The notes beneath the pieces are model-generated. The model made no database searches. It had not been told where the DNA came from and worked only from the letters and a program-made list of their open reading frames with translations. The position numbers and the translations under genes were made by a program. Of a stretch of DNA of 64,000 nucleotides, positions 14,436-40,702 are shown in pieces; position 1 is the stretch's first letter, and every line of letters begins with the position of its first letter. The stretch comes from Pectinatus sp. (GTDB taxonomy: Bacteria; Bacillota; Negativicutes; Selenomonadales; Selenomonadaceae). The DNA lies in assembly GCA_020025135.1 (NCBI GenBank), contig JAHHSQ010000001.1, positions 179 through 64,178 on the forward strand. The letters run 5' to 3'.

Positions 14436-15990
14436 TGGCGACGAAGAGGGAAGATAATAAAAAGAAATTTTGGAAAAATGACCGCGAGACTTTGCTGGTG
14501 CTAATGTATGTTTTTATTGATAAAAGCAATTAAATTATTGCCGAAAATAGTAAGTATATAGAGCAATTTATATATCAAAGGGTAAAATCCACCTGAATTG
14601 CTGGAAACTCTTAAAGCTAATCGGACTGAAGCACGGTTTTGAAAGAGAAATTGTTTGACAGTAACGAAAGTAGAAAAAATCGATTAGATGGTAGATGGTT
14701 AAATCCTAAGTACTATAAATAGACAATCAGCAGCCAAACTTCTAAGAGAAGGAGGTTCAACGACTATCTAGAGTAGGTCCGAGTGGGCCGAAGTGGGTGG
14801 CTCTTCTGATACAGAAGATGAAGATATAGTCTGTGCTCATGGGAAATCATGAGAAGTTTATTAGAACTACACTAAATTAACGCCTTGGTGTGAACATATT
14901 TTGCAGTGCTATTGGCTCTTTGAACATATTTAGCTCCAGCTTTGTCACCGCTGATTTAGATTTTCATAATCCGTATTACTTTCTCATTCGGCATTTTATC
15001 GTCGTATTGATTGGTACGATTGGTTTTTTTGTCGGCAAGAGGGTTAATTATCAGATTTGGCGCGATAAGATTGTATATATATATTTCTTGACATTGTTGC
15101 TCCTTTTGTTGGTAGTAGTACACGGCGTTACTATCAATGGAGCGAAGCGCTGGATAAATTTGATTTGGTTTCAGTTACAACCATCAGAGTTGGTAAAGAT
15201 AGTGGGAGTTATTCTTACGAGTAGTTATATCAGTGCTTGCGCTAAGATGCACCGGGACATTTCACTTTTTAATAAAAACATTGTTGCGGTCGGTGTTTTA
15301 GCATTGCTGGTTTTAGAACAACCGGATTTGGGTACTAGTATGATTATTATTGGTGTTCCAATTATCATGTATATTGTGGCTGGTATCGACCAAAAGACGA
15401 TAACGATTTTATTAATTGGAACGCTATTAGCACTGGTTTTGCTTGTTTGGGCGAAACCATATCGCTGGGACAGAATTATGATTTGGTATGACCCGTGGGC
15501 TAGGGCGCAGGGAGATGGTTATCAAACGGTACAGTCCATAATTGCCATCGGTTCAGGCGGTTTTTGGGGCATGGGTATCGGTAAAGGGGTGGCTAAATAT
15601 GCCTATTTACCAGAGGCTCATACCGATTTTGCTTTTGCAATTTTCTCACAGGAAATGGGTATGATTGGCGTCGTTTGTATTTTTATCTTGTACATGATAT
15701 TTTACTTTTATGCTTGGCGCGTGGCGATAAAAGCTAGGGATGTTTATGGTCGGTTACTCGGTTTTGGCATAGTTGCTTTGTTAGTTAGCCAAACCTTAAT
15801 CAATTTGGCAATGGTCATAGGATTGTTGCCGGTAGTCGGAGTGCCATTACCATTTATCAGTTATGGGGGGACAGCATTGCTTGTAAATATGTTTATGCTA
15901 GGCATTTTACAGAATATTAGCTTGGTCACAGATAAATATCCTTTGAAATTAGTGCCTAAAGAGGGAAAAACATTCGGCCGTAGTGGATGA
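14432..15990 (+). CDS. FtsW/RodA/SpoVE-family (SEDS) protein, split by one group I intron
   Basis: join(14432..14517,14907..15990). Exon 1 encodes M(M)ATKREDNKKKFWKNDRETLLVLMYVF plus 2 nt. The spliced junction ...LLVLMYVF(I)AIGSLNIFSSSFV reconstitutes TM1 with the same spacing I recall for B. subtilis SpoVE (LLLVIITLLLLTIGLIMVYSASAV). Exon 2 carries the rest of the SEDS fold (QPSELVK, PDLGT, LPEAHTDFAF, PFISYGG). Confidence 0.8.
14518..14906 (+). ncRNA. Group I intron (subgroup IA-like, ORF-less), copy A in the ftsW-like gene
   Basis: 5' exon ends gtttttat|. Guide sequence GTAAG is at 14550-14554, followed by an 8-bp P2 hairpin with a GCAA loop. Core motifs: attgctgg (14597), aatcagcagcc, ggttcaacgactat (14754-14767), gatatagtctg (14823-14833). 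P3 is ccacct/gggtgg. P9 has a GAAA loop. The intron ends ...ttttgcag|. An alternative in-frame 3' splice site lies at 14903. Confidence 0.85.
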
Positions 15991-29378: not shown

Positions 29379-32035
29379 TGGGTAATATACAAGTGGTTGG
29401 TCTTGGGCCAGCTGGAGAAAAGTTTATTAATCTGCATACTTGGCATATTTTAAACGATGCTGAACAAATATGCTTGCGGACCAAAATGCATCCAGCTGTA
29501 GAAGCCTTGGAAAAGAAAAATATAAATTTTATCAATTATCGGTAAGTTCAACGGGAAACCGCTGAATAGAGGTTATTATACCCAACTAAGAAATTGAATT
29601 GCTGAAAAGTCGTAAAGCCGATTAAACTAAAACATAATTTTGAAAAAGAAATAGGTGTGAAGGTGCTGAAAGGAGAAAAAATTAATCGGATAATATCTGG
29701 TGTGAATCGGGATATAAAAAATCGAAAATCAGCAGCCAAGCTCCAAAGAGGAGCAGGTTCAACGACTATTCCTCGTGAGGGAAGTAGGTATAAGCGTATC
29801 GAAGTGATTTCGCCCTAACAGGAGATGCTGAGGGAGAAGAGATAGTCTGTGCTTGTCGGAAACGACAAGGTGTCTATTATTGAGACCGCATAGATTTAGC
29901 GAAGCTATGTGAACACCACAGAAGTTATGATGATTTTTATCAAAATGGTTTATCTTTTGACGATGTCTACGAAAGAATTGTCACTGATTTATTAGTTAGG
30001 GCTAGCGTTAAAGATGTCGTATATGTAGTTCCAGGCAGTCCTATGGTTGCCGAAAGAACAGTGCCTATGTTATTAAAGCGGGCTGCTAGCGAGAATATTA
30101 AAGTAGAAGTAGTTCCAGCGATGAGTTTTTTGGAATTACTCTATGTAACTCTTCAAGTAGACCCAATTCAAGGTCTTTTAATTACAGATGCCTTTGCCTT
30201 ACAGGAAAAAGTATTGGATTTTTCTTTTGGCACAGTGATAACGCAATTATACGACAAGCATATGGCTTCAGAAGTTAAATTGACTCTGATGGATTATTTG
30301 CCAGATGATTATGAAGTGAGTGTTGTCTATCATCTAGGTATGTCAGATGAAAAGGTGACAAGCTTGCCACTTTATGAATTGGATAGAATTGAGAAGATAG
30401 ACTATTTGACGAGTTTATATGTCAAACCATATCAACAGGAAACGCAAACTTTTTCCATTAATCCATTGGTAGAAATTGTCAAAACTTTGCGTTCTCCAGG
30501 TGGATGTCCTTGGGATATACTGCAAACACATCGCTCTTTGAGAAATAATCTCATCGAAGAAACTTATTGATATTTGGTAAGCGTATCGAGAAATCGGTAT
30601 GAAAAATAAGAAATCGAAATGCTGGAACACCGCAAAGCTGATTAAACCACAACATAATCTCGAAAGATTTAGGTGTGAAGGTAGCGAAAGCAGAAAAAAT
30701 TAATCAGATGGTAGATGGCGTAAGCCTAAAATACCGTAAACCGGCAATCAGCAGCCAAGCTCTAAAAGGAGAAGGTTCAACGACTATTCCCCTAAAAGGA
30801 AGTAGGTGCGAGGGTACCGAAGTGGTTTCATCCCACAGGTAGAGCTGAGGGAAAAGAGATAGTCTGTGCTTTTGGGAAACTAAGAGAGGTTCTCTTTGAG
30901 AACTGTTTCAATTTAGCGAATTGAAATGAACAGCTTTATTAAAGTCAGGAAGTATTAGAAGCGATAGATAAAGAAGATGCGAATTTACTGTGTGAAGAAC
31001 TAGGCGATTTATTATTACAGATAGTTTTTCATGCTCGCATGGCAGAAGAAAGTAAATTGTTTTCTATGCAAGAAGTAATAGAGGGCATTACAAATAAATT
31101 GGTTTATAGGCATCCACATGTCTTTGGTGATGTTTCCGTGCGCGATGCGGGAGAAGTGCTTTTGAATTGGGAAAAATTAAAGCGAGCGGAGAAGAAGGAT
31201 AGAAAATACCTTTTAGATGGAATACCAAAAGATTTACCCGCTCTTTTAACGGCGGATAAACTGCAGTCTAAAGCAGCAAAGGTCGGCTTTGATTTTGCCA
31301 ATGTAGAAGCTGCTAAAGATAAAATATTAGAAGAATTACAAGAAACCCTAGAAGCTATTAAATTAGGAGAAGAGGAAAAAATAGAGGAAGAAATGGGCGA
31401 TTTGCTCTTTTCTGTCGTCAATTTCGCTCGTTTAAAGCACATAAATCCAGAAATTGCCTTATTAAAAAGCGATGCTGTTCGTTACTTGGACAGCTAGTGC
31501 GATTTATAGTAAGCATATCGGGAAACTGGTATGTGGCGTTTAGGAGCCGGCACAAAGAAATTGAATTGCTGGAAAGATGTAAAGCTAATTAAACCACAAC
31601 GCAATATTGAAGAAGTGTAGGCGTGACGGTGGCGAAAGCAGAAAAAATTAATTAGATGGTATATGGTTAAAACCTAAGTGCTAGAAAATTGTCAATCAGC
31701 AGCCAAGCTCTGAAGAGGAGCAGGTTCAACGACTATTTCCCGATGGGAAAGTAGGTACAAGCGTACTGAAGTTGTTTCGCCCTAACGGATAATGCCGAGG
31801 GAAAAGAGATAGTCTATGCTCACATGAAAGTGCGAGAAGTTTGTAAAAACTGTATTAAACTAGCGATTTAATACGAATAAAAACCGATATGGTAACAGTA
31901 GAAGCAAATAAAAAATTTCGCAAACGCTTTACCTTTATTGAAAGAGAATTAAAAAAATCTCAAATTGAGTGGTCCAAAGCGAATGCAGAAATGTTAGAGG
32001 ATTTATGGCAAAAGGCTAAACGAATGGAAGGATAA
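29378..32035 (+). CDS. yabN: YabN-type fusion protein (tetrapyrrole-methylase-like domain plus MazG NTP pyrophosphohydrolase domain), split by three group I introns
   Basis: join(29378..29532,29922..30567,30949..31462,31899..32035). Junctions: EKKNINF(I)SYDDFYQ; SLRNNLIEETY|EVLEAIDKEDANLLCEELGD (compare B. subtilis YabN ..MIEECYELLEAIDEED..); NPEIAL(L)EANKKFRKRFTFIE (compare ..EPEEALTMTNDKFRRRFSYIE..). These align without gaps to YabN as I recall it. The ATG overlaps the mfd stop (gTGATG). Confidence 0.85.
29533..29921 (+). ncRNA. Group I intron, copy C1 (yabN intron 1)
   Basis: 5' exon ends aattttat|. GTAAG at 29542-29546, and its TAA is the in-frame stop. P2 is ttcaacgg-GAAA-ccgctgaa. P3 is gaaat/atttc. 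P5a is ccgatta/taatcgg. P9 is cttgtcg-GAAA-cgacaag. The intron ends ...caccacag|. Confidence 0.85.
30568..30948 (+). ncRNA. Group I intron, copy C2 (yabN intron 2)
   Basis: 5' exon ends aaacttat|, then an immediate TGA. GTAAG at 30577-30581 pairs with cttat (U.G at the splice site). P2 is cgtatcga-GAAA-tcggtatg. P5a is ctgatta/taatcag. An in-frame TAA 9 nt upstream of exon 3 forces the 3' splice site to ...aaagtcag| (30948). Confidence 0.9.
31463..31898 (+). ncRNA. Group I intron, copy C3 (yabN intron 3)
   Basis: 5' exon ends attgccttat|. The P1 loop is 46 nt. GTAAG at 31509-31513. P2 is catatcgg-GAAA-ctggtatg. P5a is ctaatta/taattag. P7.2 is ggtac-aagc-gtact. The intron ends ...ggtaacag|. 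Confidence 0.85.
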
Positions 32036-32739: not shown

Positions 32740-34351
32740 TTGTTAAACGTAGTTATAACAGGTGGAACCAGTGGCATAGGTTTGGCTACTGCAAAATTGT
32801 ATTTAGAAAAGGGAGCAAATGTCTATGCTGTGGCGCGTGATGTCGGGAAATATCAAGATATTCAGGCAGAATTACACGCAGAAAATTATCATTTTGTGCA
32901 GGCTGATATAAGAAATGTAGTTGATTGTCAGCGCGCTTGTATGGAAATTGCTAACAAAGGCAAAGTGATAGATATATTGGTCAATTCAGCAGGCGTTTAT
33001 GGCGAACGGGCCATTGGTGATACTGACGAAGAATTTTTTCAAACTATTTTGGATACTAATATAAAAGGCATGTATTTTATTAAATCGCCTGTGGCGAAAT
33101 GGTAAGCCTGTCGAGAAATTGGCAGAGCATGAAAAAGGAAATTGAATTGCTGGAATACCGTAAAGCCATTTGTACCACAACACAATCTCGGAAGAGATAG
33201 ATGTGAAGGTGACGAAAGTAGAAAAAAACAAATTGGATGATGCAAGGTTAAATCCTAAACATTTTGAAATCGGCAATCAGCAGCCAAGCTCTAAAAGGAG
33301 CAGGTTCAACGACTATTTCCTCAAAGGGAAGTAGACGCAAGCGCGTCGAAGCGGTTTCGCCCTAACAGATAATGCTGAGGGAAATGAGATAGTCTGTACT
33401 CATGAGAAAGCATGAGAAGTTCATCGGAGAACTGCATGGAAGTAGCGATTTCATGTGAAAAATAATAATTAGGTGTAAGTATGCATTGCCTTTACTAAAA
33501 AAGGGGCGCAATAAGGCGATTGTCAATATTTCTTCCGATGCCGGAATAAATGGCAATTATTTTTGTACGGCATATTGCGCTAGCAAGGGAGCGGTAACGG
33601 TTTTTACGAAGGCGCTTTCTTTAGAGTTGGCCCTAGATAAGATAAGAGTGAATTGTCTTTGCCCTGGTGATATCCGTACGCCCATGACAGAAGAGCAGTG
33701 GACAGACGATAACAGCGAGGCTGAGATGAGCTCTTTTTATCCCTTGGGGCGCATTGGAACAGCGGAGGAAGTGGCTAATGCCATTTATTTTTTAGCTTCA
33801 GAAAAAGCCAGCTTTATTAAAAATTATTGCCACGTCGTTTCTTAAAATCTAGAGAGAGAAGCGGTTAATTCAAAGAGGCAATTAATCTGTTTAGTAAGCA
33901 TATTGGGTAACTAGTGTGCATAGTATGTAATTTTACATATAATAAAGAAATTGAATTGCTGGAAAGGCGTAAAGCTGATTAAACTACAACGTGATGGTGA
34001 AATAAACATGGACGTGAAGGTAGCGAAAGCAAAAAAAATTAATCAGATGACATACGGTTAAATCCTAAGTGTCAGTTTATCGCTAATCAGCAGCGAAGCC
34101 CTGAAAAAGGGAACGTTCAACGACTATTCCTCCTGAGGGAAGTAGGCTAGAAGCGATAGCTAGCCGAAGTGATTTCGCCCAAACGGACAATGCCGTGGGA
34201 AAAGAGATAGTCTGTGCTCGTGAAAAATCACGAGGTGTTCGAAATAGAACAGCGGAATAGTAGCGCATTTCCGTGAACAAATTCTCCAGATGGGAGAGTC
34301 AGAACTGGCAGTGTAATCAGTATAGATGGTGGATTGACAGCTCATTCTTAA
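32740..34351 (+). CDS. Short-chain dehydrogenase/reductase (SDR), split by two group I introns
   Basis: join(32740..33080,33473..33817,34303..34351). Has TGGTSGIG, NSAG, and Y..ASK (YCASKGA). Junctions: TNIKGMYF(M)CKYALPLLKKGRNKAIVNISS and LASEKASF(I)TGSVISIDGGLTAHS. Both reproduce standard SDR spacing. Confidence 0.8.
33081..33472 (+). ncRNA. Group I intron, copy D1 (SDR intron 1)
   Basis: 5' exon ends gtattttat|. GTAAG at 33102-33106, and its TAA is in frame. P2 is ctgtcga-GAAA-ttggcag. P3 is ggaaat/gtttc. P7.2 is gacgc-aagc-gcgtc. The 3' end is ...ataattag| (33472). This is TAG rather than CAG, chosen from SDR spacing. Confidence 0.8.
33818..34302 (+). ncRNA. Group I intron, copy D2 (SDR intron 2)
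   Basis: 5' exon ends cagctttat|. The P1 loop is 76 nt and contains its own hairpin (aattattgcc...ggcaattaat). GTAAG at 33894-33898. P2 is gcatattgg-GTAA-ctagtgtgc. P7.2 is enlarged (ggctag...ctagcc). The intron ends ...gagagtcag|. An earlier CAG at 34287-34289 would be out of frame. Confidence 0.85.
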
Positions 34352-39672: not shown

Positions 39673-40702
39673 ATGAGAAGCTTACCGCGTCCTCAATTAT
39701 TAGTAGATGGATATAATGTTATTAATTGTTGGCCGGGTCTTTTAGATAGAGATTTAGAATATTCCAGAGATAAACTCATTCACATCCTGCGGGAATATGG
39801 AGCATATGAAAATTATGATATTACGATTGTTTTTGATTGAAATTATCGTATGAGAATATACATGCGGTAATAATTCCAGTCAGTATGTTTAGAGATAAGC
39901 ATATAAAGATTGCTGATAAAGGCATCAACACTGTTTTAACTGCTGGAAACCCCTAAAGGTATTTGAACCACAACATAAACATGCAAAAAGGTTAAATGTG
40001 AAGGTGACGAAAGTAGAAAAAATCAGATACATGGCATATGGTTAAATCCTAAGTGCTTGAAATGGGTAATCAGCAACTAAGCTCTGAATAGGAGAAAGCT
40101 CAACGACTATTCCTCTTGAGGGAAGTACCTGACAAGCGATAGGTTAGGGATATGGACAGGCCTGAACAGATTAGGTTGCAGGATAAGATATAGTCTGTGC
40201 TCAATGGAAACACTGAGATGTTCCAGAGGGAACTGCATGGGTATAGCGAGCTGATGTGAACAGAATTATCGTTGTACAGAGTAGAAATGGAAATATAAAT
40301 ATCTGATACGCACTCTGTTGGTTATTTTAACGAGAAATACAGGCTTTATACACGAAATCTTGTCGTAGTACGGAATATCATGATAAACATTTTGCGATAA
40401 TTTATACCAAAGAAAAAGAAACGGCAGACAGTTATATTGAACGTTTGGCATACTATTTTTCTCATGAAGGAAAAGAAGTTTTTGTCGTCACTTCGGACGG
40501 AGCAGAACAAAATACTATTTTGGGAGCTGGCGCTTATCGCATCACAGTGAGGGAATTACAAATGGCAGTAAAAAATGCCAAAAAAAAGATGCGCAAGCAA
40601 TACATTCACAAGGTATCTGTTCCGAAGGGAAGAAATGAATTGGCGGATTATTTACAGGCTGATGTTTTGGAAAAATTGGAGGAGTTGCGTAAGAAAAAGT
40701 GA
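39673..40702 (+). CDS. yacP: NYN-domain ribonuclease YacP/Rae1, split by one group I intron
   Basis: join(39673..39837,40343..40702). The spliced sequence ...LLVDGYNVINCWP...YENYDITIVFD|ALYTKSCRSTEYHDKHFAIIYTKEKETADSYIERL...VVTSDGAEQ aligns along its length with B. subtilis YacP as I recall it (..VIVVFDAHLVKG...VIFTKENETADERIEKL..VATSDYTEQ). It follows rlmB, as in Bacillus. Confidence 0.8.
39838..40342 (+). ncRNA. Group I intron, copy E (yacP), divergent member with a retargeted guide sequence
   Basis: 5' exon ends gtttttgat|, then an immediate TGA. The guide sequence is GTCAG (39879-39883), complementary to exon ttgat with U.G at the splice site. P2 is tatgttta-GAGA-taagcata. P3 is ctgtt/aacag. 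P5a is gtatttga/tcagatac. Core motifs: actgctgg, aatcagcaac, gctcaacgactat, gatatagtctg. An ~80-nt tail follows P9.2. An in-frame TAA at 40328-40330 forces the 3' splice site to ...aaatacag| (40342). Confidence 0.8.

Follow-up and report, generated by a model that had tools for sequence, protein, structure and literature searches.

In a 64-kb stretch of Pectinatus sp. DNA (contig JAHHSQ010000001.1; hereafter the window, meaning the whole 64,000 nucleotides analyzed), the gene yacP/rae1 is split by a genuine group I intron with the protein junction FD^A (a caret marks a splice junction throughout). With a probability of roughly two in three, it is an intron of the IS200/IS605 group A IStron (CdISt1-type) lineage without open reading frames (ORFs), which landed in a pre-existing TTGAT and is now decayed. 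The match between its guide sequence GTCAG and the exon end TTGAT, taken in an earlier note on this DNA for a natural retargeting event with compensatory changes in both partners, is a known property of this lineage and not a new retargeting mutation.

Splice boundaries and structure of the yacP intron

The yacP intron was read directly from the + strand of the window (Table 1). Exon 1 ends in GTTTTTGAT at position 39837 and is directly followed by a TGA inside the intron; on an identical exon 1 product of 55 amino acids (aa) in locus L001 the Pfam domain NYN_YacP is recorded. The intron closes with AAATACAG^GCT, its terminal (omega) G being G40342, and holds an in-frame TAA at 40328-40330, upstream of exon 2. 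Joining 39837 to 40343 gives a YacP of 174 aa with the predicted junction GTTTTTGAT^GCTTTATAC, and the best relatives of this product were NYN/YacP proteins of Pectinatus (60-64% identity, 96-99% of the length). The junction DITIVFD^ALYTKS was aligned with Pectinatus YacP (DVTLVFDALYTKS) without a gap, and the longer stretch DITIVFD^ALYTKSCRSTEYHDKHFAIIYTK matches DVTLVFDALYTKSAQSYEQLNEHFEIVYTK residue for residue. As a shift of the junction by one nucleotide (nt) in either direction destroys the conserved Asp-Ala, the intron boundaries are placed at 39838-40342, and the junction given in the earlier note is retained. G40342 is the only in-frame G whose following site gives back FD^ALYT, in line with the terminal G of group I introns; the alternative G40263, if used, would lead to VFDNYRCTE and a stop, a truncated product of 61 aa. 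Neither exon is interrupted or frameshifted, and conservation extends over the full length of both. The sole match to the window's own genome was a 1.2-kb Logan contig (SRR14298095), representative genomes being without it.

At the 5' splice site all five bases of the exon end UUGAU pair with the guide GUCAG, with U39837.G39879 as the U.G pair of group I introns at the splice site, and P1 runs on past the splice site as an intronic hairpin of about 19 bp. P1 and P2 together fold at -22.3 kcal/mol (z = -4.9), a stability reached by 0/200 shuffles, and a ninth P2 pair, G39883.U39904, is added by both RNAfold and the Rfam model. The exon end, GTCAG at 39879-39883, the 8-bp P2 with its GAGA loop, the in-frame TAA and the 5-bp P1, all described in the earlier note, were found on the sequence as stated there. 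From base composition the chance of a 5/5 guide match was estimated at about 0.005-0.007 per junction fixed by homology, and as there are six such junctions in the window, the match of guide and exon lies far beyond chance. Covariation of guide and exon in P1 is a sound confirmation that the pairing marks the splice site, and repeats what has been described for group A IStrons.

The integrity of the core is supported by the covariance model, and P7 and J8/7 agree base for base with relatives. In the helix between the Q and R regions the sequence is CC/GG in the ten other introns of the window, CU/AG in the yacP intron and GU/AC in C. difficile. The idea that these differences are wholly compensatory was rejected; they are so only in part, as an adjoining G.U became an A.C mismatch in the yacP intron. 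A P10 pairing of the 3' exon with sequence 5' of the guide was not seen by eye for either candidate 3' site, which is expected, because the 3' flanks of IStrons are variable. RF00028 was the only RNA family found in 39700-40500. As the similar C. difficile IStron intron is published as IA2, the yacP intron probably belongs to subgroup IA2 too, and it is probably functional: with UUGAU held by GUCAG, the conserved core is expected to carry out excision, and joining of the exons after G40342 would restore the YacP frame.

Table 1. Features of the yacP locus and positions of the other group I introns in the window.
Feature	Positions	Strand	Remarks
yacP/rae1 exon 1	39673..39837	+	55 codons, ATG at 39673, ends ..ATT GTT TTT GAT; aligns with Pectinatus YacP residues 1-55
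Exon strand of P1, UUGAU (also the TTGAT target pentanucleotide)	39833..39837	+	U39837 is the 5' splice-site U; 5/5 pairing with GUCAG
yacP group I intron	39838..40342	+	505 nt
Intron 5' end, 41-nt P1 extension hairpin	39838..39878	+	From fold and comparison with public IStron left ends
Internal guide sequence GUCAG	39879..39883	+	Identical pentamer at the equivalent position in C. difficile and E. faecalis IStrons and 85/109 metagenomic copies
P2, TATGTTTA-GAGA-TAAGCATA	39884..39903	+	8 bp, GAGA loop, directly after GTCAG
Group I catalytic core P2-P9	39879..40217	+	Rfam RF00028, 59 bits against a gathering score of 50, model positions 1-253
28-mer CAACGACTATTCCTCTTGAGGGAAGTAC, P7 5' strand running into P8	40101..40128	+	Exact in C. 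difficile IStron; absent from the other ten window introns
J8/7 and P7 3' strand (ATATAGTCTG), then P9, P9.1, P9.2 ending GTGAACAG	40188..40263	+	Similarity to all relatives stops here
3' tail without ORF, ending ..AAATACAG	40264..40342	+	79 nt, beyond the P9.2/GTGAACAG block; stops in all frames
yacP/rae1 exon 2	40343..40702	+	119 codons plus stop; TGA at 40700-40702
Intron in ftsW/rodA-like gene	14518-14906	+
Four introns in one Acyl_transf_3 gene (21.7-24.4 kb)	21869-22273, 22336-22731, 22802-23174/95, 23290-23669	+
Three introns in mazG/yabN-like gene	29533-29921, 30568-30948, 31463-31898	+
Two introns in short-chain dehydrogenase gene	33081-33472, 33818-34302	+

Lineage, target site and tail

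In a BLAST search against plasmids the yacP intron was 77.6% identical to an element of the C. difficile plasmid CP103805 over 39926-40262, the matches ending at query position 424-425. This element, with exon end TTGAT, reads AAATTTGAT^TAAAAAATAGCTACGCACACTCGTGACTTTAGTCATGAGTTAGTAGCTAAAATA-GTCAG-P2 at its start, possesses a tnpB 200 bp downstream, ends in CCCTGTGACTTTAGTCATGGGAGGTTCAG (GGTTCAG) and is the published CdISt1-type group A IStron. When the core sequences were aligned and trimmed, identity of the yacP intron amounted to 75% with C. difficile and 72% with the IStron intron of a C. botulinum plasmid, and to 61-69% with the ten other introns of the window, which share 62-83% among themselves; the yacP copy is thus the most divergent of the eleven, as the earlier note had seen. 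Outside sequences are hence closer to it (72-78%) than its neighbors. Neighbor-joining (NJ) placed it with external IStron introns, apart from every one of the ten window introns, in 181/200 bootstrap replicates, and an NJ tree of 117 sequences, built without the guide pentamer, nested it in the GTCAG clade among copies bearing an insertion sequence (IS), far from the ten. Judged from these alignments and trees, the yacP intron is a separate arrival and not a mutant of the ten GTAAG/YTTAT introns. As it groups outside the local family, in a clade with a GTCAG majority, an A-to-C guide change in this genome, as proposed in the earlier note, is not indicated, and GTCAG is best read as its inherited state.

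The T-to-G change claimed for the exon was likewise not borne out. Intron-less yacP genes of P. cerevisiiphilus, P. brassicae, P. haikarae, a Selenomonadaceae metagenome-assembled genome (MAG) and several Clostridium MAGs carry the same empty site, GTx TTT GAT^GCx, in which TTGAT consists of the last two bases of the TTT Phe codon and the GAT Asp codon of the conserved FD motif. Since intron-less relatives possess this site, the exon did not change; by this comparison its TTGAT is ancestral and pre-existing, and no compensatory exon change took place. Among 13 genome loci and 120 metagenomic intron loci, not one shows an intron in yacP. The insertion lies immediately 3' of TTGAT, shows no target duplication and restores the coding sequence exactly, as is the case in group A IStrons. 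These insert as DNA just 3' of TTGAT, the guide GTCAG keeping every insertion spliceable, and the element probably landed by transposition in a TTGAT that was already part of yacP.

The tail, estimated at about 80 nt in the earlier note and measured here at 79 nt, begins where similarity of the yacP intron to every relative ends, at GTGAAC(AG), position 40263. In full IStrons the IS module starts right at GTGAAC and comprises 1.3-1.5 kb with tnpB alone or 1.75-2.2 kb with tnpA and tnpB, ending in GGTTCAG; the G directly after GTGAAC is not the splice site there either. Derivatives without ORFs, some of them with shortened P1 hairpins, hold only 27 nt (L115) or 49 nt (L060) in this slot, and the tail of the yacP intron occupies the same slot. 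Because it does so, a remnant of the IS module is the simplest reading of the tail, and the yacP element would most likely be an immobile, decayed mini-IStron with the tail where its IS module used to be. The tail contains a 7-bp stem, ACAGAGT (40276-82) with ACTCTGT (40312-18). At its start a 9-mer, AATTATCGT (40264-40272), repeats intron bases 4-12 (39841-39849) and could pair with the same 3' strand of P1 (AUAAUU, 39870-39875); in 505 AT-rich bases such a repeat is at about chance level, though its placement at both starts is curious.

Several observations weigh against an IStron origin. In place of tnpA and/or tnpB the intron holds only 79 nt, in which it departs from group A IStrons, and neither gene occurred among the tested ORFs of the window. 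The left-end palindrome of the IS605 type (CTCGTGAC..GTCATGAG) was absent from the P1 hairpin, the GCA[C/A]A segment from the intron's 5' end, and the right end GAGGTTCAG or a matching palindrome from the tail, which closes with ATACAG and not GGTTCAG; subterminal palindromes and the 3' TCAG of group A IStrons are thus missing, the end being ACAG. Neither local alignment nor BLAST of the tail against its own intron, the window, 141 loci and the IS modules of full-length IStrons yielded a significant match (best scores 30-35, match positions differing between elements, shuffle p of about 0.04 for one target), and its fold has no significant structure (z = +0.9, or +0.29 with P9.1/9.2 included). 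The yacP branch is long, with its nearest relative only about 75-78% identical, and G40263 corresponds by homology to the inferred 3' end of the sister intron w21859 and perhaps also of w30559. Furthermore, the 28-mer used to retrieve the metagenomic copies (at least 120 stretches) occurs in CdISt1 and in the yacP intron but in none of the other ten; as the yacP intron itself carries it, this sample is biased to its clade, although the identity values and the plasmid-based tree are independent of that selection.

Missing transposon ends would also fit a free-standing intron lineage that never possessed an IS module, had ancestry, guide and TTGAT preference in common with the intron taken up by IS605 elements, spread by reverse splicing or recombination, and used the tail as an extension of its own to position a distal 3' splice site. 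Fusobacterium IA2 introns at TTGAT sites with different 3' ends were judged not to be decayed IStrons (PMC4227781), and the P1 loops of some metagenomic TTGAT/GTCAG copies are very short (L101, L089 group). We nevertheless consider this origin unlikely: the yacP intron nests among, not outside, the IS-bearing copies, its similarity stops exactly where the IS module of IStrons starts, and the tail is devoid of conserved or stable structure. Retargeting within this genome, in which a resident GTAAG/YTTAT intron gained an A-to-C mutation in its guide and moved to the UUGAU of yacP by reverse splicing or homing with the RNA guide alone, is hardly credible. The difference in guide and exon end from the other ten does fall precisely on the paired position, the guide state changes repeatedly on the family tree, and an RNA-level route is conceivable for a copy without transposon ends; yet a higher identity to C. 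difficile-type IStron introns (75-78%) than to the ten (61-69%), the 28-mer and other derived motifs common to the yacP intron and IStron introns, the 181/200 bootstrap against a grouping with the ten, GTCAG as the majority state of its clade and an ancestral TTGAT, which leaves nothing compensatory in the exon, all speak against it.

A decayed intron that is no longer excised, or one mis-spliced at G40263 to give the 61-aa product, with yacP in either case reduced to a pseudogene, is highly improbable. This explanation could draw on an Rfam score of 59 bits, lower in only two of the eleven introns, on the A.C mismatch between the Q and R regions, on the unstructured tail and on the competing G40263 itself, which stands in a GTGAACAG context that is the apparent end of w21859 and perhaps of w30559. 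It is opposed by exons that are intact, in frame, 60-64% identical to relatives and joined without a gap, by a core above the Rfam gathering threshold with P7 and J8/7 as in active relatives, and by the corresponding G of full IStrons, which is likewise no splice site. An origin from a group A IStron remains our preferred reading of the yacP intron.

The other introns of the window and switching of guides and targets

Rfam recorded eleven group I introns in the window, all on the + strand and in sense orientation within chromosomal housekeeping genes between 14500 and 40350. In an alignment anchored on the core, the ten introns outside yacP present GTAAG (nine) or GTAAA (one) in the column of the yacP GTCAG, and in all ten the exon end pairs 5/5 with the guide, being TTTAT at 14517, 21868, 22335, 22801, 29532, 33080 and 33817 and CTTAT at 23289, 30567 and 31462. 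Five of the ten junctions are backed by gapless alignments of spliced proteins with Pectinatus homologues: the mazG/yabN-like product (29532^29922, 30567^30949, 31462^31899) is gapless over 483 residues with its homologue in Pectinatus haikarae, and the short-chain dehydrogenase (33080^33473, 33817^34303) matches Pectinatus GTYFMCKYVLPL and ASEKASFVTGAV. Splicing of the four-intron gene results in a single continuous Acyl_transf_3 match. The ten split into two subclades, one of three introns {14526, 22791, 23290} and one of seven, with P1 loops of 9 to 76 nt, and by their divergence they look like old residents and not like a recent burst. Short 3' tails resembling the emptied stem and right end of an IStron occur at 34270-34302 (GTGAACAAATTCTCC-AGAT-GGGAGAGTCAG) and 30927-30948 (ATGAACAGCTTTA-TT-AAAGTCAG), which suggests that some of the ten may also descend from IS605-type IStrons that lost their IS module. 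Among viral contigs their relatives were confined to partial, uninformative matches to phage IA2 introns, and group I introns were absent from seven related loci of 7-20 kb, as they are from the syntenic loci of Pectinatus.

Eleven introns per 64 kb are a very unusual density for a bacterial chromosome; giant sulfur bacteria were the only intron- and IStron-rich case met in our literature search. All eleven lie on the + strand, and none was found in the minus-strand genes at 0.7-10.6, 16.6-19.8 and 48-62 kb. GC skew is positive across the whole window (0.09-0.22), hence the + strand is taken for leading-strand sequence and lagging-strand template. The lagging-strand template is the strand reportedly preferred by IS200/IS605 elements.

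Among 109 unique public copies of the wider family, 85 carry GTCAG, and 82 of these have YTGAT^T within 120 nt upstream; of the 20 with GTAAG, 16 have YTTAT and four YTGAT (Fisher p of about 1e-12 for the association of guide and exon end). By parsimony the third base of the guide changed at least 11 times on the tree of 117 sequences. Switched targets were seen in close pairs such as E. faecalis TTGAT/GTCAG and E. faecium CTTAT/GTAAG (88% identical) or C. botulinum TTGAT/GTTAG and P. larvae TTTAT/GTAAG (82%). By this survey, which the earlier note had called for, joint switches of guide and target have recurred across the wider family. In a few copies (L083 300-, L116, L135 7908-, and L016 from an E. 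lactis plasmid) the guide position is occupied by TTCAG or GTTAAG and the exon may end in TTGAAT; these could represent a third target class or a register shift. On a metagenomic contig (L060) two TTGAT/GTCAG introns lie about 0.5 kb apart (472-976, 1457-1899), the first without ORFs and with its 49-nt tail ending in GAGGTTCAG; as this contig carries two, multi-intron loci of the TTGAT/GTCAG lineage exist elsewhere.

Directly 5' of the left-end hairpin, full-length public IStrons (L022-L141, L002, L017, L018, L021) that target TTGAT carry the segment GCA[C/A]A, and those that target YTTAT carry [A/G]AAAA. At that left-end position the TnpA of IS608 and ISDra2 is said to use a DNA guide for target recognition. 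Because the segment differs by target class, a candidate guide at the DNA level switches together with the RNA guide; an exact pairing rule of TTGAT with the left-end DNA segment was sought and none could be derived, so that the relation is one of association only. Site choice is therefore probably driven by the transposase at the DNA level, the RNA guide following to keep insertions spliceable. Of the earlier proposal that P1 pairing defines insertion and splice site, the covariation behind it stands family-wide, while the insertion site is probably set by the transposase; likewise, moves to new targets did recur, and the left-end DNA segment switched along with the guide, which probably did not act alone. 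The survey may serve as a pointer for studies of IS605 elements, TnpB and introns that change target together.

It is very unlikely that the IStron-lineage introns without ORFs are themselves mobile here, with the 5-nt RNA guide as sole determinant of landing by reverse splicing into UUGAU or YUUAU. If true, RNA-guided mobility would account for the presence of eleven introns in housekeeping genes over 64 kb, with the yacP copy as a second guide specificity spreading beside the first, and its 79-nt tail could be a functional module choosing between G40263 and G40342.

Comparison with known systems

Group A IStrons insert after TTGAT, ATTAT or TTTAT with P1 pairing and end in TCAG, and in their IA2 introns the IS200/IS605 left-end palindrome lies inside P1 (Tourasse et al. 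2014, PMC4227781); both the target classes and the pairing were on record before. TTGAT is furthermore the transposon-adjacent motif of TnpA/TnpB of the C. difficile IStron (Zedaveinyte et al., 10.1101/2023.11.20.567912). The yacP intron resembles group A IStrons (CdISt1) in its core (75-78%), in TTGAT with GTCAG, in T as first intron base, in a long P1 hairpin directly followed by a 9-bp P2, in similarity up to GTGAAC and in sense insertion inside a coding gene without target duplication. Unlike them it has neither tnpA/tnpB nor end palindromes, ends with ATACAG instead of GGTTCAG, bears an unrelated 79-nt tail in place of the 1.3-2.1 kb IS module and resides in a Pectinatus-related host of the Selenomonadales.

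Derivatives without ORFs are known for the group B IStron BcISt1 (PMC4227781), and standalone introns as well as ORF-less elements consisting of ends only were reported for C. difficile IStrons (10.1101/2023.11.20.567912). Like the yacP intron, such relatives in C. difficile 630, emetic B. cereus (BcISt1), L060, L115 and a P. larvae plasmid (L019) combine an IStron-lineage core with a distance of only tens of nt from GTGAAC to the 3' splice site, some with shortened P1 hairpins; L060, L115 and L019 keep a short stem and the GAGGTTCAG right end, which the yacP copy is without. The free-standing IA2 introns of Fusobacterium periodonticum, likened here by description only, share with it the TTGAT site, the relation to IStrons, the lack of an IS module and a 3' end that is not that of an IStron (PMC4227781). 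With the yacP locus the TTGAT/GTCAG lineage extends to a host gene (yacP/rae1) and a host clade (Pectinatus-related Selenomonadales) that are both new for it, the intron being most likely the end state of a decayed IStron without ORFs whose splicing is presumably still needed for expression of an RNase gene, and the window is an example of two target classes coexisting in one chromosome region.

In IS608 and ISDra2, the latter of which targets TTGAT, DNA guides internal to the element reportedly recognize the target and were retargeted in experiments by changing them. IStrons have a comparable class-linked segment at their left end plus an RNA guide that must change in step, while in the yacP copy the guide-like left-end segment is no longer present. 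With phage IA2 introns (Twort, T4 td/nrdB type) the yacP intron has the general core architecture and the RF00028 match in common; those introns, however, move by homing endonucleases to one cognate site, unlike the IStron lineage with its generic pentanucleotide.

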